NCBI GenBank assembly: GCA_965225915.1
Contig: OZ245326.1
Span: 2,616,701 to 2,680,700 of the forward strand
From: a bacterium
GTDB taxonomy: Bacteria; JAAXHH01
Direction of reading: 5' to 3'
DNA: 64,000 bases
Shown here piece after piece: positions 13,885 through 45,750 of this stretch. Every line of letters begins with the position of its first letter. The stretch's first letter is position 1. Below the pieces are notes generated by a model, which saw only the letters and a program-made list of their open reading frames with translations, was not told where the DNA came from and made no database searches. Made by a program: the position numbers and the translations under genes.

Positions 13885-14667
13885 ATGGACCTGAAACCCG
13901 GATTCCAGGATAGCCCAATGTCCGATTTGAAACCCTTGAACACCCAGCAGATCAACCAATTCAAGTTGAACGGCTACCTGGTTCTGGAGAACGTGTTCGA
14001 CGAAGAGACCGTCGAGGCCTGGCGCCGGCAAATCTGGCGGAAACTGAACAGTTCGCTGGAGGAACCTGAAACCTGGCCCAGGGAAACGAGCGGTCTGGAC
14101 GGGTATGAATATGATCCGCCCGATTCGGCCCTCGTGCACCATCCGTACATGATGGCGATCATGGACCAGTTCAGCGGCGGGACCTTCGTTGCCGGGGACG
14201 GCATTCCCATCATTCGCTGGCCGGAGCTGGAACGTACATGGCAAATGCCGAAAACAGGGCATATCGACGCCTACGGGGGACGCTGGCTGCCCTTCATGAT
14301 CGGCGCGACAACCTACCTGTACGACGTGGAACCCGGCGGCGGCGCTCTCATCTACTGGCCGGGAAGCCACTTTGCGGCCCACCGGTATTTTCTGGAACAT
14401 CCTTCGCAGGTGGACGGCAATTTTCTGGAGATCGAAGGTTTCTCGTGGGACGTATTCTGCGACAACCCGGCCACCGGCGGCCGGGAGTTTGCCGCGAAGG
14501 CCGGCGACTTGGTGCTGTGGCATTCCTACCTGACCCACAACGGTTCGGAAAACACGGGTACTATGCCGCGCATCGCCCTATTCGCCCGATGGAACCACGA
14601 AAGACACCTGGAGAAAGCCTTTCGCTACGAGATCCCCGATGATCTGTGGAAATACTGGGCGGTGTGA
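13885..14667 (+). CDS. PhyH-family Fe(II)/2OG dioxygenase
   Basis: GHIDAYGG (HxD), WPGSHF and YLTHNGSEN. An alternative start, MSDLKPL, lies at 13918. Confidence 0.8.
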   Translation: MDLKPGFQDSPMSDLKPLNTQQINQFKLNGYLVLENVFDEETVEAWRRQIWRKLNSSLEEPETWPRETSGLDGYEYDPPDSALVHHPYMMAIMDQFSGGTFVAGDGIPIIRWPELERTWQMPKTGHIDAYGGRWLPFMIGATTYLYDVEPGGGALIYWPGSHFAAHRYFLEHPSQVDGNFLEIEGFSWDVFCDNPATGGREFAAKAGDLVLWHSYLTHNGSENTGTMPRIALFARWNHERHLEKAFRYEIPDDLWKYWAV

Positions 14668-14724
14668 CCCGTTGGATAACCTAACAATGTTGGCTATGTT
14701 TAAGAAAAACGCGGAGTTGGAGCT

Positions 14725-16119
14725 ATGGAAATAAGAAAACTCATTTTAAGGGATGTTCGATGTTTTGCCGGTCGACAGGAGTTCGTTATCTGCCCACTTA
14801 CATTTTTGGTGGGAGAAAACAGTACTGGTAAAACTACGGTTCTAGGTTGCTTGCAAGCAGTTTATGATTTCATGTGTAGGAAAGGTTATAGTCTAAACTT
14901 CAATGTAGATCCTTACCCAATGGGAGCATTTTCAAATTTAGTTAGGAGATCTAATCCGACAATAAAACAGTTCCTGGTTGGGTTAGAACTACAGGCCTCA
15001 AAGAAAAAGGAACCGGTTGAATATACATTGATTCTGGTTGCGAGAGAGGAAGGTTCAGAACCCGTAATAAAGGAACAAAAGATAGTTACTAAGCAAGGAG
15101 AGGCGTTTTTCTTCAGGGATGACAGGGAAGCAGATACAACGAAATCTATTCAAAACGATGATTCATCTATCATGAACTTAGGATTCGAAATTGTTGACTG
15201 TTCTGAAGAAAGCGGATACACGAAATTTACTTTAAAAGAAGCAACGGAGCTGAGATTGGATCTCTCACTGTTAGGTTTATTTAGATCTGAGAGTGCGAGG
15301 ACTTTTGGATCTATAAGAGGCGACAGAATCAATTCAGTACCCAAGAACTTTAGAGTTTTTGAGAAATTCAGAAATGCTATTTCGAATTTACTCGATATAA
15401 AACCTAGTTCCTTGTTCTTCAGCAATAGTAGGTTTGACCAACCTGATATAGTCAGTTTTGCTCCGGTGCGCTCTAAACCTCAACGCACCTACAATCCGTT
15501 TAAAGAGGAAGAGAACCCAGAAGGAATCGACATCCCGATGTTGATTATGAATATGTCAAGAGCGAATAAGGATAGATGGGGTGAACTAAGAGACAGTTTA
15601 ATTAAGTTTGGAAAATCATCTGGCTTGTTTACCGATGTAAATGTCAGAAGACTGGGGAAGTCAATTGGCGATCCATATCAACTACAGATTAAGGTAAAAG
15701 GACCTAAAGTAAATTTCACTGATGTGGGATACGGAGTGAGTCAAATTCTTCCGATCCTTGTCCGAATCTACAACGCATACTCTAAGACGGTTTTCTTAAT
15801 GCAGCAGCCAGAGGTACATTTACATCCCAAAGGCCAAGCTGAACTGTCTTCAATGTTGATTGAAACCATTAAAAGCAAGAAGCACAGATATGTGATTGAG
15901 ACTCATAGTGATGCTATGGTAAATAGAGCACGAATTGAAATCATGAATGGTGTAATCGCACCACAGGATGTCTCACTTATATACTTAGAACCTGTTGGCA
16001 ACCGAGTGAGAGTTCACAATATAAGTTTCGACAAACAAGGCAATCTTATAGGTGCTCCACCTGGCTATAGAAACTTTTTCATAAATGAATCGGATAGGTT
16101 ACTAGGTTTTACAAATTGA
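14725..16119 (+). CDS. ABC/SMC-like ATPase of the AAA_21/AAA_15 type with DUF3696-like C-terminus
   Basis: Walker A GENSTGKTT (aa 30-38), Q-loop-like RSKPQRTY and signature-like DVGYGVSQILPIL. Walker B/D-loop is VFLMQQPEVHLHP and the H-loop is IETHSD. A ~300-aa insert separates Walker A from the signature motif. The C-terminal tail is FDKQGNLIGAPPGYRNFF. Confidence 0.8.
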   Translation: MEIRKLILRDVRCFAGRQEFVICPLTFLVGENSTGKTTVLGCLQAVYDFMCRKGYSLNFNVDPYPMGAFSNLVRRSNPTIKQFLVGLELQASKKKEPVEYTLILVAREEGSEPVIKEQKIVTKQGEAFFFRDDREADTTKSIQNDDSSIMNLGFEIVDCSEESGYTKFTLKEATELRLDLSLLGLFRSESARTFGSIRGDRINSVPKNFRVFEKFRNAISNLLDIKPSSLFFSNSRFDQPDIVSFAPVRSKPQRTYNPFKEEENPEGIDIPMLIMNMSRANKDRWGELRDSLIKFGKSSGLFTDVNVRRLGKSIGDPYQLQIKVKGPKVNFTDVGYGVSQILPILVRIYNAYSKTVFLMQQPEVHLHPKGQAELSSMLIETIKSKKHRYVIETHSDAMVNRARIEIMNGVIAPQDVSLIYLEPVGNRVRVHNISFDKQGNLIGAPPGYRNFFINESDRLLGFTN

Positions 16120-16129
16120 AAGTACATTT

Positions 16130-16543
16130 ATGTGTCTTATTTTAGATACCAACAAATTTAGTGAGTATGTAAATCCTGAAAACCAAGATATGGAACTCGT
16201 AAGAAAATGGATGAGCAAAAATGGTAAGATGGTGTACTCACCGACATTAAAATTGAAACAAGAATTGGAAAAACACGACAAGATGAGAAAGCAGTTTGAT
16301 CAATTCAGAGAAAATGGAAAACTGAAACAATATCCAGCAAGAGAAGTTGAACAGGATAAAAGATCATTACCTCAACTGAAATCTGACGACCCTGATATAA
16401 TCGCCTTGGCCAGGATAGCCAAGGTTAAGCTGTTAGTCTCGGGCGACACCAATCTGCATACTGACTTTAAATCTGTTGTTAACGGGAGTGTTTACCAAAC
16501 CACGAAACACAAAAAACTGTTGAGACAAGACACCTGCCCTTAA
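16130..16543 (+). CDS. small PIN-like (VapC-like) putative nuclease
   Basis: The acidic residues fall in PIN-typical contexts: ILDTN (D6), QELE (E45/E47), SDDPDIIALARIAKVKLLVSGDTNLHTDF (D86/87/89, D106, D112). It starts 10 bp after the ATPase stop and shares the AT-rich composition. Confidence 0.5.
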   Translation: MCLILDTNKFSEYVNPENQDMELVRKWMSKNGKMVYSPTLKLKQELEKHDKMRKQFDQFRENGKLKQYPAREVEQDKRSLPQLKSDDPDIIALARIAKVKLLVSGDTNLHTDFKSVVNGSVYQTTKHKKLLRQDTCP

Positions 16544-36661: not shown

Positions 36662-37426
36662 ATGAAGTATCCCAATCCGTTAAAGCAGCGCATCCGTGGC
36701 GGCGCCCTGCTGCTGGGCACGGTGCTGCCCGCGCCTACCTCGTTCACCGCCGCGGCCGTCTCCGGTGCCGATATCGATTTCATGTGGATCGATACCGAAC
36801 ATTCCTCCTTCGGCATAGAAGACCTCGACATGGTTCCGGTGATCGCCCGACAGCGGGGCGTCGCGCCCATGATACGCGTCGCCTCGAACGATCCCGCGCT
36901 GATCAAGAAGGCCTACGACATCGGGGCCGTGGCGGTCATGGTCCCCCAGGTCAATACGGTCGAAGAGGCGGAAAGGGCCGTCCGGTATGCCCGTTACGCT
37001 CCCGAGGGACAGCGGGGCATTTCTCCCTACTGGGCGATGCTGGCGGACCTGGATTTCAACGAGGTAATCCGAACGGCCAACGAAGAGACCGTGCTCGTGC
37101 TCCAGATCGAGAGCAAGGAAGCCTACGACAACCTCGACGATATCGCGCGGGTCGAAGGTATCGACGTGCTCTTCGTCGGTCCCACGGATCTTTCCGCCAC
37201 GCTGGGCGTGATAACGCAGAACGATTCCCCCGAGGTGCAATCCGTCCTCCGCGACGTGCCGAAGCGCCTGGAAGGCACCGGGATCATGGCGGGGACGACG
37301 CTGGACGACGTAAAGGATATACAGGAGAAAATCGAGTGGGGTTACCGCTACATCAACGTCGGTACGCCCATGGGCTACGGCTTGCGCGTCCTGCAGCAAA
37401 ACCTGAATACACTGCGGAGTGGATGA
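36662..37426 (+). CDS. HpcH/HpaI-family 2-keto-3-deoxy-acid aldolase
   Basis: FMWIDTEHSSF, VMVPQVNTVEEAERAV and PEGQRGISP are typical of HpcH/HpaI aldolases. Confidence 0.85.
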   Translation: MKYPNPLKQRIRGGALLLGTVLPAPTSFTAAAVSGADIDFMWIDTEHSSFGIEDLDMVPVIARQRGVAPMIRVASNDPALIKKAYDIGAVAVMVPQVNTVEEAERAVRYARYAPEGQRGISPYWAMLADLDFNEVIRTANEETVLVLQIESKEAYDNLDDIARVEGIDVLFVGPTDLSATLGVITQNDSPEVQSVLRDVPKRLEGTGIMAGTTLDDVKDIQEKIEWGYRYINVGTPMGYGLRVLQQNLNTLRSG

Positions 37427-37430
37427 CAGG

Positions 37431-38204
37431 ATGATCAGCGAAGACCAGGTCAGGCATTTCCACGACCGGGGATGGGTGGTGGTAGAGGCCGTCTACCGTC
37501 CCGAAGAATCCGACGAGGTGGCCCGGCTCGCCCTGGAAACCGGCGAAAACATCACCGAGCATGAAACCATGGCGGGGTACTCACTGGACGTCTCCGAATC
37601 GGGTGAATCCGCGCCGCGAAAGATCGACAATCCATACCGGCGGGATCCGTTGTTCCGCAACTTTGCCCTGGATGGACGGCTTCGAGATATTCTCCGACGG
37701 ATTACCGGTGAAGAACCTCTGCTCAAAAGCGACCAACTCTTCATGAAACCGCCGCGGTTCGGGTCGGAGAAACCCTACCACCAGGACAACTTCTACTTCC
37801 GCTGCGCGCCGGGTGACCAAGTGGTCACGGCGTGGATCGCCCTCGACGATGTGGACGAGGAGAACGGTTGCCTTCGGTACATTTCCGGGTCCCACAAGAA
37901 GGGGGTACTGGACCACGTGGAAGTGCCCGGACAACCCTACAACCTGGCGCCTCCCGACGACCTCATCGACTGGAAGCAGGAAGCCGCCGCGCCGGTGCGC
38001 AAGGGCGGCGTGGTCCTGCATCATTCCGAAACCCTGCATACGTCACGCCGGAATACCTCGAACCGCTGGCGGCGCGGATACGCGACGCACTGGGTTACCG
38101 CCGAAGTGACCACCGAGACAGACAACCTGGACTACGCCTACTTTCGAAGCGACGACTACGCGGCTCACGTACGGGCTGCGGACCAGAAGACTGTGACCGT
38201 ATGA
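37431..38204 (+). CDS. PhyH-family Fe(II)/2OG dioxygenase
   Basis: KPYHQDNFYF (HxD), ISGSHKKG and ETLHTSRRN. An alternative GTG start lies at 37419. Confidence 0.8.
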   Translation: MISEDQVRHFHDRGWVVVEAVYRPEESDEVARLALETGENITEHETMAGYSLDVSESGESAPRKIDNPYRRDPLFRNFALDGRLRDILRRITGEEPLLKSDQLFMKPPRFGSEKPYHQDNFYFRCAPGDQVVTAWIALDDVDEENGCLRYISGSHKKGVLDHVEVPGQPYNLAPPDDLIDWKQEAAAPVRKGGVVLHHSETLHTSRRNTSNRWRRGYATHWVTAEVTTETDNLDYAYFRSDDYAAHVRAADQKTVTV

Positions 38205-38904: not shown

Positions 38905-39699
38905 TCATGCGGCAGAGTTCTCGGCGACCAGTTTTTGCAGGATGTTCGCCATTAACTTACCCGGCGTCTTCTCCGCGTATCCCGCCCGTTCGAATCGTCG
39001 ATGGCCCTTTCGCCGCACCAGGATCTCGCTCCAGAAGAAAAATCCCTCTTTCAGCCTGACTTCCTCCAGCTCGCCGATGTCGTATGACGCCGAGACGTTG
39101 TTGTTGACCAGGCGGTTCGACCGGGTGATGGCCATACCTTCTTCGCCGGAACCGTCGATATCGTAGAAAACCAGCAGGTCGTTCACCGTCGAGGCCACGC
39201 CTTCGAAGAGGGCATTGCGCTGCAGCGATACGATGAAGTTCGCGGCGCGGTCTGCGTCGATATCGGGGTAGATGTACAAGCCTGCACCGCCATCGGTCCT
39301 CGTTCCACGTGTGGCCCTACGTATACGCTCGGCGGCCGGGTCGGCGGAGGCGCCCGATCCCGACTGTTTGGAGGCGCCGGTCCTTGCCTGGCCAGGGCGG
39401 GCCCTACTCGCACGGCCCTCTGACGATCCCTGCGCCGAGCGATAGCGGGGTGGCGACTGCCGGGTGGAAGATGAACCGAAGGTGGAGGACCCCTTCAGTC
39501 GTTCCGGGTTCCGAACGAGCCACTGGTACGCCTCGTTGATCTCCGTGAACTTGGTCGTCGCCCGGTCTTTCACCTGGGTGGGGACCTTGTCCGGATGCCA
39601 GATCAGCGCCAGTTCCCGGTACGATTTCTTCACATCTTCGACGGACGCGCCCGGTGCGAGGTCGAGCGTCGAAAGCGCCTTTATCGTTTTGTCTTCCAT
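38905..39699 (-). CDS. J-domain protein with disordered linker and uncharacterised C-terminal domain
   Basis: VEDVKKSYRELALIWHPDK carries the HPD motif. A Ser/Arg/Gly-rich linker and a ~110-aa globular C-terminus follow. An alternative start lies at 39786/39789. Confidence 0.7.
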   Translation of the reverse strand: MEDKTIKALSTLDLAPGASVEDVKKSYRELALIWHPDKVPTQVKDRATTKFTEINEAYQWLVRNPERLKGSSTFGSSSTRQSPPRYRSAQGSSEGRASRARPGQARTGASKQSGSGASADPAAERIRRATRGTRTDGGAGLYIYPDIDADRAANFIVSLQRNALFEGVASTVNDLLVFYDIDGSGEEGMAITRSNRLVNNNVSASYDIGELEEVRLKEGFFFWSEILVRRKGHRRFERAGYAEKTPGKLMANILQKLVAENSAA

Positions 39700-39817
39700 G
39701 TAGGAGTATTTAACCGATGCAAAGGGTTGTCTCAAGCGTTTTGTGCCGCTATATTTACCGTCGCGATCATCTGACAGGCCATCCATCACAGACCGTACCT
39801 TCGACCGGGGTCACTAA

Positions 39818-40651
39818 ATGCCCATTACCGACGCTTTGCCGGAGATGAAAAGGGAACTGCGGTTTTTTCCGGTGCAGAACGACAGTCCAAAAACGATGAC
39901 GCCCGAACAGATCACCTTTTTCAACGAAAACGGGTATCTGTGCCCCCTGGACGTTTTCACGCCGCAGGAGGCGGAGACGAACCGCCTGTACTTTGAAGAC
40001 ATGATGGCCCGGGCCGAGAAAGAGGGATACAACAGCTACTCGATCAATGGCTGGCAGAGACATTGCCGGGGCATTTACGACCTGGCCAAAACGCCCAGGA
40101 TCCTGGACTACGCGGAAGACCTGGTAGGCGAGACGCTGATCTGCGAAATGACCCATTACTTCTGCAAGATGCCCGGGGACGTTAAAAAGGTAAGCTGGCA
40201 CCAGGATGCTTCGTACTGGCCGCTCACCCCGAGCAAGGTGGTGACGATCTGGCTGGCCATCGACGACGTGGACGAGGAGAACGGTCCCATGACGGTGATC
40301 CCGGGCTCTCACCGGCACGGTCAGATCCCGTTCGAAAACAGCACGAAGGCGGAGCGAAACGTGCTGGGGCAGACCGTCCTTGATCCGGACAGGTGGGGCG
40401 GGGACCCCGTACCCTTTGTCATGAAGGCCGGCCAGATTTCCATGCACACCGACCTTCTGCTGCACGGATCCGAACCTAACGTATCCGACCGTCGACGCTG
40501 CGGTTTGACGATACGATATTTACCGCCCGACGTTCGCGACCGCGAACCGGAATACCACCAGGCCCTCGTCTGTCGGGGCAGCGATCCCTCGGGTTACTGG
40601 AGACCCCTGCCCCGGCCCGAAGGAGATCGGATTCCGCCGCGTAATCGGTAG
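39818..40651 (+). CDS. PhyH-family Fe(II)/2OG dioxygenase
   Basis: VSWHQDASYWP (HxD), VIPGSHRHG and DLLLHGSEPN. Confidence 0.85.
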   Translation: MPITDALPEMKRELRFFPVQNDSPKTMTPEQITFFNENGYLCPLDVFTPQEAETNRLYFEDMMARAEKEGYNSYSINGWQRHCRGIYDLAKTPRILDYAEDLVGETLICEMTHYFCKMPGDVKKVSWHQDASYWPLTPSKVVTIWLAIDDVDEENGPMTVIPGSHRHGQIPFENSTKAERNVLGQTVLDPDRWGGDPVPFVMKAGQISMHTDLLLHGSEPNVSDRRRCGLTIRYLPPDVRDREPEYHQALVCRGSDPSGYWRPLPRPEGDRIPPRNR

Positions 40652-40712
40652 GTATATACAATGTATCTTCGCCATCGGCGATTCTGGACAAACGCTGGAT
40701 GTGGTTCAGAAA

Positions 40713-41603
40713 CTATGTGGCGAGCGGTCGGCAGTGCTTGCACGGACGGCAGCCGTTTGCCGCCGCCTCATCGGCACTGGTGAATTCCATGCGATGCCGA
40801 TCCTGGATGCGGCGGGCGTCGCGGCAGGTCGGATAACAGTAAATACCAGTCGTCCGGCTGCCGACGAAGCGTACACCCCGTTGTTTCCAGTTTGCCAGAT
40901 CCTTTCTTTCAATCCCCTCCCGTTCCAACAGCGTCCATTTCATCTCCGGGCCGTAATAGTAGTTTCCCACGCCGCCAACCGAGGGAACCAGCCGGTGGCA
41001 GGGCATCAGAAAGGGCACGGGATTCCGCGCCATGACCGTGCCAACGGCCCGGATCGCCTTCGGCCTGCCCACCTCCCGGGCCAGCCAGGCGTAGGGGCGA
41101 ACCTCGCCGAGTGGTATTTTCGCCAAGTGCTCCAGGACGGTCTGTTCGAATCCGGTCAAACCCTCAAGGGTGATCGGTGGCGGGATGTTCTTCTCACCCT
41201 TGATCGCTTTCCTGACCGCATGTGCGTACTTTCCGGGCAAGCTGCCTCGTGCCACCTTCCTCCCCAGTCTGTCTTCATAGTAGGATTCGAAGACGCCATC
41301 CTCCTCAACATCGAGCTTTACCGCAGATATGCCCCTTGGCGTGAATCCCACGTGCGCAGGTCCGAACTCCGTTTCGATGACATCGTATCGGTCAATGATC
41401 ATCCCTGTTACTCCTTCCATTATACCGTTTGGGGCGGTCAGTTTAAGTGGCTTTATACCATCTGCCATGTGCGCGAGGGATGCGGCCTCATCGCGGCATG
41501 CAGGACAGGATTCAAGGTGTTCCGCCACGGCCCGTCGCACTTCGGCGTCAACCTCTCCCGTCCTCACTGCATCCAGGTACTGCCTTGCTTCGTTACAGTC
41601 CAT
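40713..41603 (-). CDS. anti-sigma (zf-HC2) / O6-alkylguanine-DNA alkyltransferase / Ada-type zinc-finger fusion protein
   Basis: EHLESCPAC is the Hx3Cx2C anti-sigma zinc motif. The MGMT domain reads TGFEQTVLEHLAKIPLGEVRPYAWLA...RAVGTVMARNPVPFLMPCHRLV. The C-terminus FVGSRTTGIYCYPTCRDA...GCRPCKHCRP parallels E. coli Ada FAVRTTGIFCRPSCRAR...GFRPCKRCQP. No transmembrane segment. Confidence 0.8.
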   Translation of the reverse strand: MDCNEARQYLDAVRTGEVDAEVRRAVAEHLESCPACRDEAASLAHMADGIKPLKLTAPNGIMEGVTGMIIDRYDVIETEFGPAHVGFTPRGISAVKLDVEEDGVFESYYEDRLGRKVARGSLPGKYAHAVRKAIKGEKNIPPPITLEGLTGFEQTVLEHLAKIPLGEVRPYAWLAREVGRPKAIRAVGTVMARNPVPFLMPCHRLVPSVGGVGNYYYGPEMKWTLLEREGIERKDLANWKQRGVRFVGSRTTGIYCYPTCRDARRIQDRHRMEFTSADEAAANGCRPCKHCRPLAT

Positions 41604-42219
41604 GGGGTGTATCCTCCATGATCTTGCGCAGTTTTCTTAAGGCTCGGAATACTTTACCGCGCAGGGCCGATTCCGACGATCCGGTTATCGACGCGATTTC
41701 GGCATAGCTGGACTGCTCGATGAATCGCAGGATGATTAGTTCCCTGCTTTCTCCACCCAGGCCGGCCAGGGCAAGCCGCAGTGCCCGTGTCTGGTCATCG
41801 GAAGGCTCGCGAGCCGAGTTGCTGACTGTCAACTCGACCGCCATTCGATCCTGCGCAGCCGCCCTCCGTTTTCGCGCCCGCAACCTGTTGAACGCCAGGT
41901 TCCGGACGATGCGAAACAGCCAGGGACGAATCTCGAGGGTCCGGCACCGCTCCTCGTCGTACTTGCCGGTGAGCGTGGTATAGGCCCGGACGAAGGCGTC
42001 CTGCGTGATGTCATTGGCGTCATCCGTCCCGCCGAGCATGTGATATGCGTAATTAAACAGGATGTCCTCGTAGGTTGCCACCAGGTCCGCCACCGCGTCG
42101 CGGTTTCCACGGTGGATTTCGAGGGCGATGTTTCGCCCCTCTTCTTCGAGGGCGATGTTTCGCCCCTCTTCATTGGTCATGCGTACGTCCTTTACCCATC
42201 GACTCGATGTCGGTTTCAA
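41593..42219 (-). CDS. ECF-type RNA polymerase sigma factor
   Basis: Region 2 (DITQDAFVRAY...RPWLFRIVRNLAFNRLR) and region 4 (ILRFIEQSSYAEIASITGSSESALRGKVFRALRKL). It overlaps the anti-sigma gene by 11 bp. An alternative start lies at 42180. Confidence 0.85.
   Translation of the reverse strand: MKPTSSRWVKDVRMTNEEGRNIALEEEGRNIALEIHRGNRDAVADLVATYEDILFNYAYHMLGGTDDANDITQDAFVRAYTTLTGKYDEERCRTLEIRPWLFRIVRNLAFNRLRARKRRAAAQDRMAVELTVSNSAREPSDDQTRALRLALAGLGGESRELIILRFIEQSSYAEIASITGSSESALRGKVFRALRKLRKIMEDTPHGL
42118..42171. repeat. perfect in-frame tandem duplication, 27 bp x 2, in the 5' end of the ECF sigma gene
   Basis: ttcgagggcgatgtttcgcccctcttc at 42118-42144 and again at 42145-42171. It encodes EEGRNIALE twice. 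Confidence 0.95.
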
Positions 42220-42387
42220 TAGTACAACACCGCAACGCGGAGTTTAGTTCGGGGATGAGTAAAAAGGATCGGAAAGGTGGTTTGATCAAGCGGGAGACTA
42301 AGTTTGCACTGTCACTTTTCAAGTTTAACCGGAAAGGCGTACTTTACTGATCACGCGCGAGTCCATCGTTATATCCAGCCAGCCCCT

Positions 42388-44133
42388 CTAATCGCTCCCA
42401 CCGAATACCCTCTCCCAGAATCCCGTAGGCCCGGTGTCTTGCTCCCCGTCTTCGGCGATATAGATCGTAAAGGCCGTGTTCCCGATCTGTTCACCCCGCC
42501 ACGCCCTGAAGCCCCGCAGGTTCGGTTCGAGGGCCTCTCCCCGGATGTCCGATTTCCATATCTGGTTCATCGTCGGGTACCACACGAAGAGGCCGCCCAC
42601 TTCCTCCACCAGGATCCGTTCGGCCCGTCGGTAGACGTCCATGCGCGCCTGGTTGTCGCCGACGATGCCGCCGGCCTGTACCACCAACTGGTTGAACCGG
42701 TCATTCTTCCAGGCGTGGCGGCCCGAGGAAAGCCAGAGGTTCATGAGGCTGCTGGGATCGATGAAGTCGGCGCCGAAACGGACGAGTCCCAGGGGAAGCT
42801 GATGGCTGTTGATCGCGTCCATGAAGACCTTGACCTCGATATTGCGCACGGAAAGGTCGATCCCGAGGTTCTGCTTGATCATGGCATGGATCGCCTCGCC
42901 CGCTTCGTGCACCGGCTGTACGTCGCGACGGATCCACATCTCCACCCGGGGGAACCCCTTGCCGTTCGGATATCCCGCTTCGGCCAGCAGCTTACGTCCC
43001 AGTTCGGGATCGTAACGCTGGACGGGCCTTAACACTTCGGTCGCTTCCGCCGGGAACCCGGGCGGAAGCATCGAGTTGGCGGGGATCGCAAAACCCTGCA
43101 GGGCGGAACCGCACACGGCCTGGCGGTCGATGGCGTGGCTGAAGGCCTGGCGGACTTTAAGGTTGTCGAAGGGCGGGTTGTACGTGTCCATCGTGAGATA
43201 GTAGGTCGCGAAGTCGGTGTAGGAATGCAATTCCCGGCTCAACTTCGGATCGGTCTTGATCCGGGCGAGTTCGGCGTGGTTGGTAACGAGGGCGAAGTCC
43301 ACCTCGTCCGCCTCGTAGGAGGCGAGCAGGGGCGGCGGCGTCGACGCGTTGTGCAGCTTGGCGATGATCGTTTCCAGGTAAGGCCGCGCGGCGCCGTGGT
43401 ACCTTGGATTGGCCTTGAGCACGACCCGGTCGGCCTTGGTCCACTCCTTCAGGTAGAACGGCCCGCTGGCGATGGAGGTTTCCGGGCTGGTGGACCAGGC
43501 GTCGCCGTGCTTCTCCACCGCCTGTTGGGGAGACACCCAGCTGTCGACCATGAGGTCCGGCATGTAGGCACAGGGTTCGTCCGTCTCGACCAGTAGGGTG
43601 TAGTCGTCGACCGCATGCACGCCCAGCGAGTCGAGGGGTAGTCTGCCTCCCACGACCTCGCTCCAGTTCTTGATCGGCCGGTAGTACCACTCCACGTCGT
43701 AGGCATTGTCCGGATCGGCCCCGCGTCGCAGTGTGAACACGAAATCGTGGGCGGTCAGCGGCTTGCCGTCGGAGAACTCCAGGTCGTCGCGAAGGTAGAA
43801 GTACCATCCAAGCCCGTCGTCGGTGGGCTCCCAGGAGTTCGCGGCGGCCGGGATCAGGTTGAAGTCCTTGTCGAACCGGATCAGCGGTTCCGCGATGATC
43901 CGGTGACCGTAGGTGCCCTTGTAGATCGTTCGGAACCACTCCATGTAGGTGTTGTCCAGTTGGAACAGGCGGACGTACTGTTCCGAAGGCGGCGCCGCGT
44001 CGGGGGGCAGGGTGACGCCCGCTGAGTTGACGTAGGGCGTGGACGGACCGTCGCTGGCCAGGACATGCAGGATCCCGGCAGCGGCCGCGCCAAGTATTGC
44101 GAGGAGTGATAACACGCGAACCGGCGTCAACAT
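42388..44133 (-). CDS. ABC transporter substrate-binding protein, family 5 (peptide/nickel/opine type)
   Basis: An N-terminal signal/anchor, then SWEPTDDGLGWYFYLRDDLEFSDGKPLTAHDFVFT, typical of SBP_bac_5. No permease or ATPase genes are adjacent. Confidence 0.85.
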   Translation of the reverse strand: MLTPVRVLSLLAILGAAAAGILHVLASDGPSTPYVNSAGVTLPPDAAPPSEQYVRLFQLDNTYMEWFRTIYKGTYGHRIIAEPLIRFDKDFNLIPAAANSWEPTDDGLGWYFYLRDDLEFSDGKPLTAHDFVFTLRRGADPDNAYDVEWYYRPIKNWSEVVGGRLPLDSLGVHAVDDYTLLVETDEPCAYMPDLMVDSWVSPQQAVEKHGDAWSTSPETSIASGPFYLKEWTKADRVVLKANPRYHGAARPYLETIIAKLHNASTPPPLLASYEADEVDFALVTNHAELARIKTDPKLSRELHSYTDFATYYLTMDTYNPPFDNLKVRQAFSHAIDRQAVCGSALQGFAIPANSMLPPGFPAEATEVLRPVQRYDPELGRKLLAEAGYPNGKGFPRVEMWIRRDVQPVHEAGEAIHAMIKQNLGIDLSVRNIEVKVFMDAINSHQLPLGLVRFGADFIDPSSLMNLWLSSGRHAWKNDRFNQLVVQAGGIVGDNQARMDVYRRAERILVEEVGGLFVWYPTMNQIWKSDIRGEALEPNLRGFRAWRGEQIGNTAFTIYIAEDGEQDTGPTGFWERVFGGSD

Positions 44134-44811: not shown

Positions 44812-45750
44812 CTACCCGTACATCCGGATCGCTGTCGGTTCGGTCGGACGGTTCTTGCGGGGCGGTCGCTGCGTCGTGACCTTCAGCGCCTCCTCCCAGC
44901 CGCGTCGCCAGGTTTCGTAGTTCGTAAGCACGAATTCGGGATGGCGGCGGCTCCGGGTGATAAAGTTCGGGTAAAACGAACGACCTGTGGGCAGACCGGT
45001 CTGTTGATACCGCAGATCGAGGCTCCATCGTATCGTGCCGGAACGGTTGGGGATGGACCGGTGCGGGATCAGCTTGTGCATAAGCAGCACGTCGCCCTTC
45101 TTCATCGGCAGAGACAGGACCCCGCCTTCCGGCAACTGGCCGTCTTCGATGCCGAACCCTTCGCTCCAGTACACGGTCCGCCTGTGGTGAACCCGGGGTA
45201 TGATCTGCAGGCATCCGTTCTCTTCGTCGGTGTCGCACAGCGGCATCCAGACAGTAAGAATGAATACCGGGTCCGCGTCTTCGTGGTGTACCTGCGCGTC
45301 CTGGTGCCAGGGCGCCACGTTCTCCTTGATGCGGGCGTTCAGGGGGTCTTCTTCCCCGTTTCCCGCATATGCCAGGTTATCGGGCAACTTGGCCCGCAAA
45401 TGCTGAATGGGACTGCACGTGATTTCGGGTCCCACGAGAGACTCCACCAGGTCCAGCATCCGGTTGTTGCCGAGAAAGTGAAACAACGCTTCGGCCCGCA
45501 TGTGCATGATGTCGATTTCGTCGTAGATCGAGGTGTTTTCCTGAGTGATCAGGGCGAGCCGCCGCTCGAAGGGTTCGCCCGCGTGCAGTTCCGAGATCAG
45601 TCCTTCCTGCTTAAGATCACGGGCCCGTTCATCGACGAACGCTTCGATTCCGGCGATGACGGGATCCAGGTCGGCGTCGGCAAGCGCGCCTTCGACGATG
45701 ACGTAGCCTTCTTCTGCGAAATGCTGGAACTGATCTTCCGTTATAGCCAT
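44812..45750 (-). CDS. PhyH-family Fe(II)/2OG dioxygenase
   Basis: QFQHFAEEGYVIVEG, APWHQDAQV (HxD) and KLIPHRSIPN. Confidence 0.8.
   Translation of the reverse strand: MAITEDQFQHFAEEGYVIVEGALADADLDPVIAGIEAFVDERARDLKQEGLISELHAGEPFERRLALITQENTSIYDEIDIMHMRAEALFHFLGNNRMLDLVESLVGPEITCSPIQHLRAKLPDNLAYAGNGEEDPLNARIKENVAPWHQDAQVHHEDADPVFILTVWMPLCDTDEENGCLQIIPRVHHRRTVYWSEGFGIEDGQLPEGGVLSLPMKKGDVLLMHKLIPHRSIPNRSGTIRWSLDLRYQQTGLPTGRSFYPNFITRSRRHPEFVLTNYETWRRGWEEALKVTTQRPPRKNRPTEPTAIRMYG

Follow-up and report, generated by a model that had tools for sequence, protein, structure and literature searches.

A putative alkylation-sensing module in which an ECF sigma factor is paired with an anti-sigma domain fused to Ada-type methyl acceptors

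How do bacteria beyond the classical models sense methylation damage to their DNA? What is understood of the adaptive response to alkylation comes from AraC-type Ada proteins, chiefly those of Proteobacteria and Firmicutes, and we know of no account of how most other phyla detect such damage. The question is raised by a two-gene locus on contig OZ245326.1 of assembly GCA_965225915.1 (GTDB lineage Bacteria; JAAXHH01), analysed here within a window of 64,000 nucleotides (contig positions 2,616,701 to 2,680,700 of the forward strand; all coordinates below are those of the window). On the minus strand, a gene for an extracytoplasmic function (ECF) sigma factor overlaps a gene for a 296-aa protein that joins an anti-sigma domain to both methyl-acceptor modules known from Ada. 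A preliminary description, made from the letters alone, had suggested that suicide methyl acceptance may release the sigma factor here rather than activate a helix-turn-helix (HTH) protein. The module is real, conserved and well-defined. We hold it to be highly probable that its two genes encode a cognate sigma/anti-sigma pair in which the anti-sigma factor is a bifunctional methyl-acceptor repair protein. The full mechanism, in which the pair forms a self-inducing response to alkylation damage, is favoured by a narrow margin over the contrary.

The 296-aa protein is encoded at 40713-41603(-) in the open reading frame (ORF) listing of the window. It had been described as carrying a zf-HC2 motif, an MGMT-type alkyltransferase with a PCHR active site and an Ada-type zinc domain, and profile annotation, judged against the curated Pfam gathering cut-offs, confirmed each part: zf-HC2 (PF13490) at residues 3-37 (28.8 bits, cut-off 22.2), DNA_binding_1 (MGMT) at residues 152-231 (86.8 bits, cut-off 27) and Ada_Zn_binding (PF02805) at residues 243-293 (39.9 bits, cut-off 23). 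The N-terminal domain of the O6-alkylguanine alkyltransferase (AGT) is also present, as the NCBIfam Ada model pairs residues 70-231 with Ada 188-350; the two-domain enzyme is complete, with PCHR kept, as had been proposed. Against the NCBIfam Ada equivalog the protein scores 101.5 bits, below the cut-off of 345. The expected absence of an AraC-type HTH and of a transmembrane segment was borne out, with no HTH family in the Pfam scan even at E<=1 and no transmembrane helix (maximal 19-residue Kyte-Doolittle mean of 0.82). Lacking an AraC-family HTH in the Pfam scan, the protein is not an Ada activator of the E. coli type.

Four features can be placed on the minus strand. The anti-sigma domain (residues 1-69; 41397-41603) is defined by four helices and by a complete zinc motif, C3, H29, C33 and C36 (H-x3-C-x2-C with an upstream ligand). 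It is followed by the N-terminal, ribonuclease-like domain of the alkyltransferase (residues 70-150; 41154-41396) and by its C-terminal domain with PCHR (residues 151-231; 40911-41153), in which the acceptor Cys202 is encoded at 40998-41000 and the PCH translation was checked. Residues 243-293 (40725-40877) make up the Ada-type Zn(Cys)4 domain, the acceptor module for methylphosphotriesters, in which Cys256 is encoded at 40836-40838.

The identity of the zinc domain depends on the alignment of its cysteines with those of Ada. All four are present, and phmmer searches against the Protein Data Bank (PDB; 1adn, 1u8b and 1wpk) place C256, C260, C288 and C291 in register with Ada C38, C42, C69 and C72, the segment GSRTTGIYCYPTC...GCRPCKHCRP aligning onto Ada 29-74, in agreement with the parallel drawn in the preliminary description. 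A further cysteine, Cys285 (codon 40749-40751), lies three residues ahead of the third zinc ligand (GCRPC); the position is Tyr in 58, Cys in 16 and Phe in 14 of 90 relatives, and Phe in E. coli Ada.

Structure prediction agrees with these assignments. An AlphaFold2 model built from a 90-sequence alignment (mean predicted local distance difference test (pLDDT) score of 93.2, predicted template-modelling score (pTM) of 0.76) shows helices at residues 3-15, 20-32, 34-53 and 61-69 (pLDDT 79-96), followed by an alkyltransferase fold and a small C-terminal domain; the helical bundle of class I anti-sigma domains, three helices and a fourth, is present. Foldseek matched the model to Ada-C (1sfe; TM-score 0.80 over 168 columns, E 8.6e-13) and 38 other AGT structures, and to the methylated N-Ada/DNA complex (1u8b; root-mean-square deviation of 1.9 A over 51 residues, 45% identity). 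A profile built from residues 1-72 of 29 family members retrieved RsiW of the SigW-RsiW complex (5wuq) as the top PDB match over its whole length (E 1.3e-6), followed by RslA (3hug, 7.7e-5), DdvA (8rlz, 1.6e-3) and then ChrR and RsrA. In that alignment C3/H29/C33/C36 pair with C3/H30/C34/C37 of RsiW, which we take to be the zinc ligands of RsiW, and the motif also aligns with that of RsrA. The N-terminal domain is thus a genuine anti-sigma domain of class I and is predicted to bind the sigma factor. For each of the three domain types (class I anti-sigma, alkyltransferase and N-Ada zinc), every feature open to computation is found in this one protein, which is in effect an Ada with an RsiW-like anti-sigma domain in place of the AraC HTH and with its acceptor modules in swapped order.

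The partner gene was listed as an ORF at 41593-42219(-) starting from TTG 42219, and the preliminary description had adopted this extent together with an 11-bp overlap with the fusion gene. The overlap of sigma stop and anti-sigma start is read directly from the sequence (ATGGACTGTAA, 41593-41603(-)), whereas the start is more likely ATG 42180, because AAAGGA lies ahead of it as a ribosome-binding site and because the sigma factors of relatives measure 181-186 aa. The gene would then occupy 41593-42180(-) and encode 195 aa. The product consists of sigma regions 2 and 4 only, with no region 3 in Pfam (Sigma70_r2, 44.7 bits; Sigma70_r4_2, 42 bits; both above cut-off), and it scores 83.1 bits against the NCBIfam sigma70-ECF model TIGR02937 (cut-off 42.9). 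Among named NCBIfam models the best is SigW, with a score under its cut-off. Overlaps of 8-14 bp also occur in L082, L087-L092 and L002 among the related loci, and the 11-bp overlap implies that translation of the two genes is coupled, a coupling that appears to hold at every locus with a detected sigma gene.

A perfect 27-bp tandem duplication (42118-42171) lies in the N-terminal part of the sigma ORF and repeats EEGRNIALE in frame; each copy contains a hairpin, GGGCG-ATGTTT-CGCCC. The unit is single-copy in the relatives L081, L082 and L084, and the second copy may reflect recent slippage or an error of assembly.

How far does the pairing extend? A word-indexed protein search returned 853 matches. 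The best 120 of these are nearly all full-length, at about 296 aa, and come from Gemmatimonadota, Acidobacteriota, Chloroflexota, Zixibacteria and metagenome-assembled genomes of Longimicrobiales; public annotation calls them just "methylated-DNA--protein-cysteine S-methyltransferase". With residues 1-150 as query, an exhaustive HMMER search yielded 124 representatives at E<=1e-3, about 25 of which span nearly the whole query. Among the matches listed from the genome collection, 15 loci are true relatives (L001-L015) and the remainder are mostly ordinary Ada and Ogt genes, apart from one further informative locus (L023). An ECF sigma gene stands immediately upstream of the fusion in 13 of these 15 loci by tblastn, and directly upstream, mostly overlapping by 8-14 bp, in all 12 metagenome loci (L081-L092); close relatives from Gemmatimonadota were retrieved by exact-protein look-ups. 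The survey of fusion and adjacent sigma factor that the preliminary description had called for thus finds a recurrent pair, which spans at least five phyla.

Two main architectures can be distinguished. Type A comprises the anti-sigma domain, MGMT and the Ada zinc domain, and is found in the window, Acidobacteriota, Chloroflexia, Thermoanaerobaculia and Gemmatimonadota. Type B begins at the equivalent of about residue 45, so that it retains helix 4 and an AP motif in which P58 is invariant, but neither helices 1-2 nor the zinc site; its hosts are Acidimicrobiia, Limnocylindrales, Dormibacterota, Actinomadura and Spirillospora, of which Actinomadura chokoriensis and Spirillospora sp. NBC_00431 are cultured. 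Type B nevertheless retains its pairing with a sigma factor. In a neighbour-joining tree, small and with two outgroups, the sigma factors linked to type A and to type B form separate clades.

An association with a second repair activity is seen in Chloroflexota. In L002 (6893-8645) and L090 (5970-7671), the sigma gene and the fusion are followed by an MGMT/Ada-zinc paralog without the anti-sigma domain and by an HhH-GPD (AlkA-like) glycosylase. Outside these two loci the conserved unit is the two-gene cassette alone, and the downstream genes in other phyla vary (SpoIIE, PilZ, EamA or no family).

Autoregulation is indicated by a shared upstream motif. Alignment of the regions upstream of close relatives revealed CGAAC-N16-GTGTT, which in the window occupies 42226-42251(-), some 45 bp ahead of the start codon of the sigma gene, and is the sole exact match in the 64 kb. 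ECF promoters of the GGAAC...GTT type are a known form, to which this motif is similar. Scanning with the pattern [CG][GC]AAC-N15-17-G[TG]GTT placed it upstream of the sigma position and on the correct strand in all 25 distinct loci scanned, including L010 and L013, in both of which no sigma gene is found by similarity, and in all six loci fetched after the motif had been defined; the chance expectation is about 0.004 per 200-bp window. The first half is CGAAC in type A and GCAAC in type B, and the second is G(T/G)GTT. No sigma-70-type promoter was found in 40400-42500. The motif is thus a putative promoter and indicates probable positive autoregulation by the sigma factor. Two further matches in the window, one with a single mismatch (57241) and one to the degenerate pattern (31943), are no more than chance would produce and were set aside.

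Which part of the protein would carry the signal? Conservation among full-length members differs between the acceptor sites and the anti-sigma zinc site. PCHR is found in 115 of 116 members (the exception reads ACHR) and the four Ada-type cysteines in all 116, while the CHCC zinc motif of the anti-sigma domain is intact in 89 and degenerate in 26, the degenerate forms being concentrated in the clade of the window protein itself. In addition, all 90 homologs compared share Y171, R185, N194, C202, H203, R204, Y215 and E229. Because PCHR and the four Ada-type cysteines are near-universal and the CHCC motif is repeatedly degenerate, the two methyl-acceptor sites are more tightly constrained than the zinc site of the anti-sigma domain.

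These counts bear on the possibility that the protein is a zinc/thiol sensor of the ZAS kind, in which C3/H29/C33/C36 would lose zinc on oxidation or electrophile attack, much as in RsrA, with MGMT and the Ada domain carried as a repair payload. The complete CHCC motif of the window protein, aligned as it is with those of RsiW and RsrA, would suit such a sensor, and among soluble anti-sigma factors of class I, zinc motifs are enriched and a redox-sensing role is frequent (PMC7406223). However, the members that have lost zinc ligands keep PCHR and the four Ada-type cysteines, the zinc-less variants P0012 and P0029 retain both the sigma overlap and the promoter motif, and type B is without the zinc site altogether. 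Since the ligands have been lost repeatedly while pairing and promoter persist, this explanation is weakened, and we consider it unlikely.

A mechanism that runs through the acceptor sites instead can be outlined, for which we infer that the protein binds the sigma factor, accepts methyl groups and lets the sigma factor go once methylated. The sigma factor and the 296-aa protein would be made in fixed proportion from their overlapping genes, and at rest the RsiW-like N-terminal domain would keep the sigma factor inactive. The rest of the protein would be a bifunctional suicide repair enzyme, with Cys202 accepting alkyl groups from O6-alkylguanine and O4-alkylthymine, and zinc-bound Cys256 accepting a methyl group from DNA methylphosphotriesters. 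On DNA alkylation, the protein would become irreversibly methylated, and the sigma factor could then be freed by either of two routes. Methylation of Cys38 in E. coli Ada takes a negative charge off the Zn(Cys)4 centre, by which DNA binding is switched (methylated N-Ada/DNA structure, 1u8b), and an Ada-type charge switch of this sort may lock the 296-aa protein onto DNA. Alternatively, methylation may loosen the alkyltransferase fold, which continues anti-sigma helix 4, and so lead to proteolysis; alkylated AGTs are known to be destabilised, with the contact between their N- and C-domains broken, and degraded (PMC10779285). A signal route through the junction of alkyltransferase and helix 4 would fit the comparison of architectures, because the core common to types A and B is helix 4, alkyltransferase and the Ada zinc domain. 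Free sigma factor, with RNA polymerase, would act at CGAAC-N16-GTGTT of its own operon and yield more sigma factor and fresh repair/anti-sigma protein, with the Chloroflexota operon also providing a further alkyltransferase and a glycosylase of the AlkA kind. The response would shut off once unmethylated protein again outnumbers the sigma factor.

The same architecture and the same autoregulatory promoter would be expected if free anti-sigma factor were depleted simply by titration onto damaged DNA or by consumption and turnover, giving homeostatic feedback with no conformational switch induced by methylation. Synthesis at about 1:1 from the overlapping genes means that small losses of anti-sigma factor would free sigma factor. 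Bound sigma factor, however, would move to the DNA together with the protein unless the two kinds of binding were mutually exclusive, and an allosteric or proteolytic step would still be required. Depletion as the whole explanation seems improbable.

There may, more simply, be no signalling link at all: the sigma factor would answer an unrelated cue and drive expression of a repair enzyme whose N-terminal helices are vestigial or structural. Type B, which is without most of the anti-sigma domain, is compatible with this. So is a third form, seen once, in Janibacter anophelis (L023, 1097-2625), where an MGMT gene, a minimal 155-aa ECF sigma factor and a plain 201-aa MGMT occur in this order, with a 4-bp overlap, and where the Ada domain, the anti-sigma domain and the CGAAC/GCAAC...GTGTT motif are all absent. 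On the other hand, the anti-sigma domain matches solved anti-sigma factors and is conserved across phyla, with L10, D11, R14, E17, H29, C33 and P58 invariant or near-invariant, and no other regulator gene is conserved beside the pair in the loci compared. We regard an unlinked sigma factor as decidedly improbable. Least probable of all, and very much so, is a methylation-dependent co-activator that stays on the sigma factor while its Ada-type DNA clamp steadies the ECF holoenzyme at promoters, for although activation by E. coli Ada depends on its contacts with region 4 of sigma-70 and with the C-terminal domain of alpha, and the N-Ada domain is here kept in full, the 296-aa protein has no sequence-specific HTH in the Pfam scan and class I domains occlude the core-binding surfaces of the sigma factor in all solved complexes matched.

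Four considerations temper confidence in release of the sigma factor by methylation. Because type B is paired with a sigma factor too, the essential link may lie elsewhere than in the canonical anti-sigma domain. Binding of the sigma factor by that domain, and any effect of methylation on the binding, are predictions drawn from comparison of sequences and structures. The signalling residue, if either acceptor serves as one, could be Cys202, Cys256 or both, or it could be neither. Lastly, the window contains no second promoter match and no other repair gene beyond the operon, and neither an AlkA-like gene, a second MGMT nor a second related ECF sigma factor was found in its 64 kb.

How does the module compare with systems already described? 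The 296-aa protein shares with E. coli Ada both suicide methyl-acceptor modules, the four aligned zinc cysteines (C38/42/69/72 in Ada) and a two-domain AGT with PCHR, and, as proposed, the control of its own synthesis by a repair protein. It differs in the order of its modules, in which AGT precedes the zinc domain, in having an N-terminal anti-sigma domain in place of an AraC-type HTH, and in its output, which would be release of an ECF sigma factor rather than activation at sigma-70 promoters. The resemblance to B. subtilis SigW-RsiW lies in the alignment of the anti-sigma domain with the whole length of the RsiW cytoplasmic domain, zinc ligands matching. The order of sigma gene then anti-sigma gene, behind a presumed autoregulatory promoter of the GAAC...GTT type, is that of the class I zinc anti-sigma pairs more generally (SigW-RsiW, RsrA-SigR, ChrR-SigE and RslA-SigL). 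Unlike RsiW, the window protein is soluble and has no transmembrane helix, so site-1/site-2 proteolysis would not apply. Its sensor module would be AGT and N-Ada, instead of an extracytoplasmic domain, a cupin (ChrR) or a zinc site alone (RsrA).

The closest catalogued relative is the ECF122 group (groups of Casas-Pastor et al., 2021), for which a review describes a conserved neighbour encoding 6-O-methylguanine DNA methyltransferase, no cognate anti-sigma factor and a mechanism that is unknown, with an example from Cellulomonas (PMC8999054). By that description, which is the basis of the comparison, the likeness to the window-type sigma factor is the MGMT gene conserved beside it. The window protein, by contrast, combines a canonical anti-sigma domain with an Ada zinc domain. 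Those actinobacterial loci that were examined here are of type B, or have plain MGMT in Janibacter, and the Janibacter form may be what ECF122 describes. Neither ECF122 nor methylguanine is mentioned in the main text or the bioRxiv version of Casas-Pastor et al. Apart from the ECF122 remark, nothing emerged from literature searches that linked anti-sigma or ECF factors to alkyltransferase, Ada, methylphosphotriester or PF02805, and reviews of AGT fusions list EndoV and histone-like fusions with no sigma link. The statement in the preliminary description that the architecture was uncharacterised accordingly holds for experiments, but the ECF-MGMT neighbourhood had already been catalogued (PMC8999054). 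The components are known, and it is the combination, with its implied input of DNA methylation damage through a consumable anti-sigma factor, that appears to be only partly catalogued.

If the module works as outlined, it suggests a second solution to alkylation sensing, in which the same suicide acceptor domains are wired to an ECF sigma factor via a canonical anti-sigma domain. DNA lesions would join the list of anti-sigma inputs, and an ECF group listed without an anti-sigma factor would gain a candidate regulator. A bolder form of the claim, for and against which the case seems to us evenly balanced, is that this would be the first anti-sigma factor with a DNA lesion as its input, read by irreversible self-methylation (Cys256 and/or Cys202) that frees an ECF sigma factor. 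An Ada-like adaptive response would then operate by sigma replacement, not through an AraC activator, in Gemmatimonadota, Acidobacteriota, Chloroflexota and Actinomycetota, and type B proteins would prove to be overlooked anti-sigma factors, reduced to helix 4, of ECF groups listed without one. With two genes, one promoter and defined cysteine residues, the hypothesis is easily testable, and a compact, orthogonal, alkylation-inducible switch may be of use in synthetic biology.

Paralogs of the phytanoyl-CoA dioxygenase family (PhyH) are unusually dense in the window (13885-14667, 37419-38204, 39818-40651, 44812-45750 and others), and also in L081. Among them lie genes for an SBP_bac_5 solute-binding protein, TENA/THI-4, an HpcH/HpaI aldolase, an aminotransferase and an amidohydrolase, and the region has the look of a catabolic island. 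In all close relatives, and not in other phyla, one of the PhyH genes runs convergently to the anti-sigma gene. A J-domain protein (38905-39789(-)), whose long linker is rich in Ser, Gly and Arg and whose C-terminal domain is uncharacterised, is conserved beside the cassette in L081, L082 and L084 only. Both neighbours were considered as parts of the system and rejected, as downstream genes are not conserved in other phyla. Scans of the window for Rfam families and tRNA genes gave no hits. The guanine-cytosine (GC) content falls to 46% at 13900-16200, against about 60% elsewhere in the window, and the ORF at 14725-16119(+) within this stretch encodes an AAA_15/AAA_21 ATPase (AbiEii/OLD-like); the drop in GC and the type of ATPase together suggest a horizontally acquired, defence-type gene.

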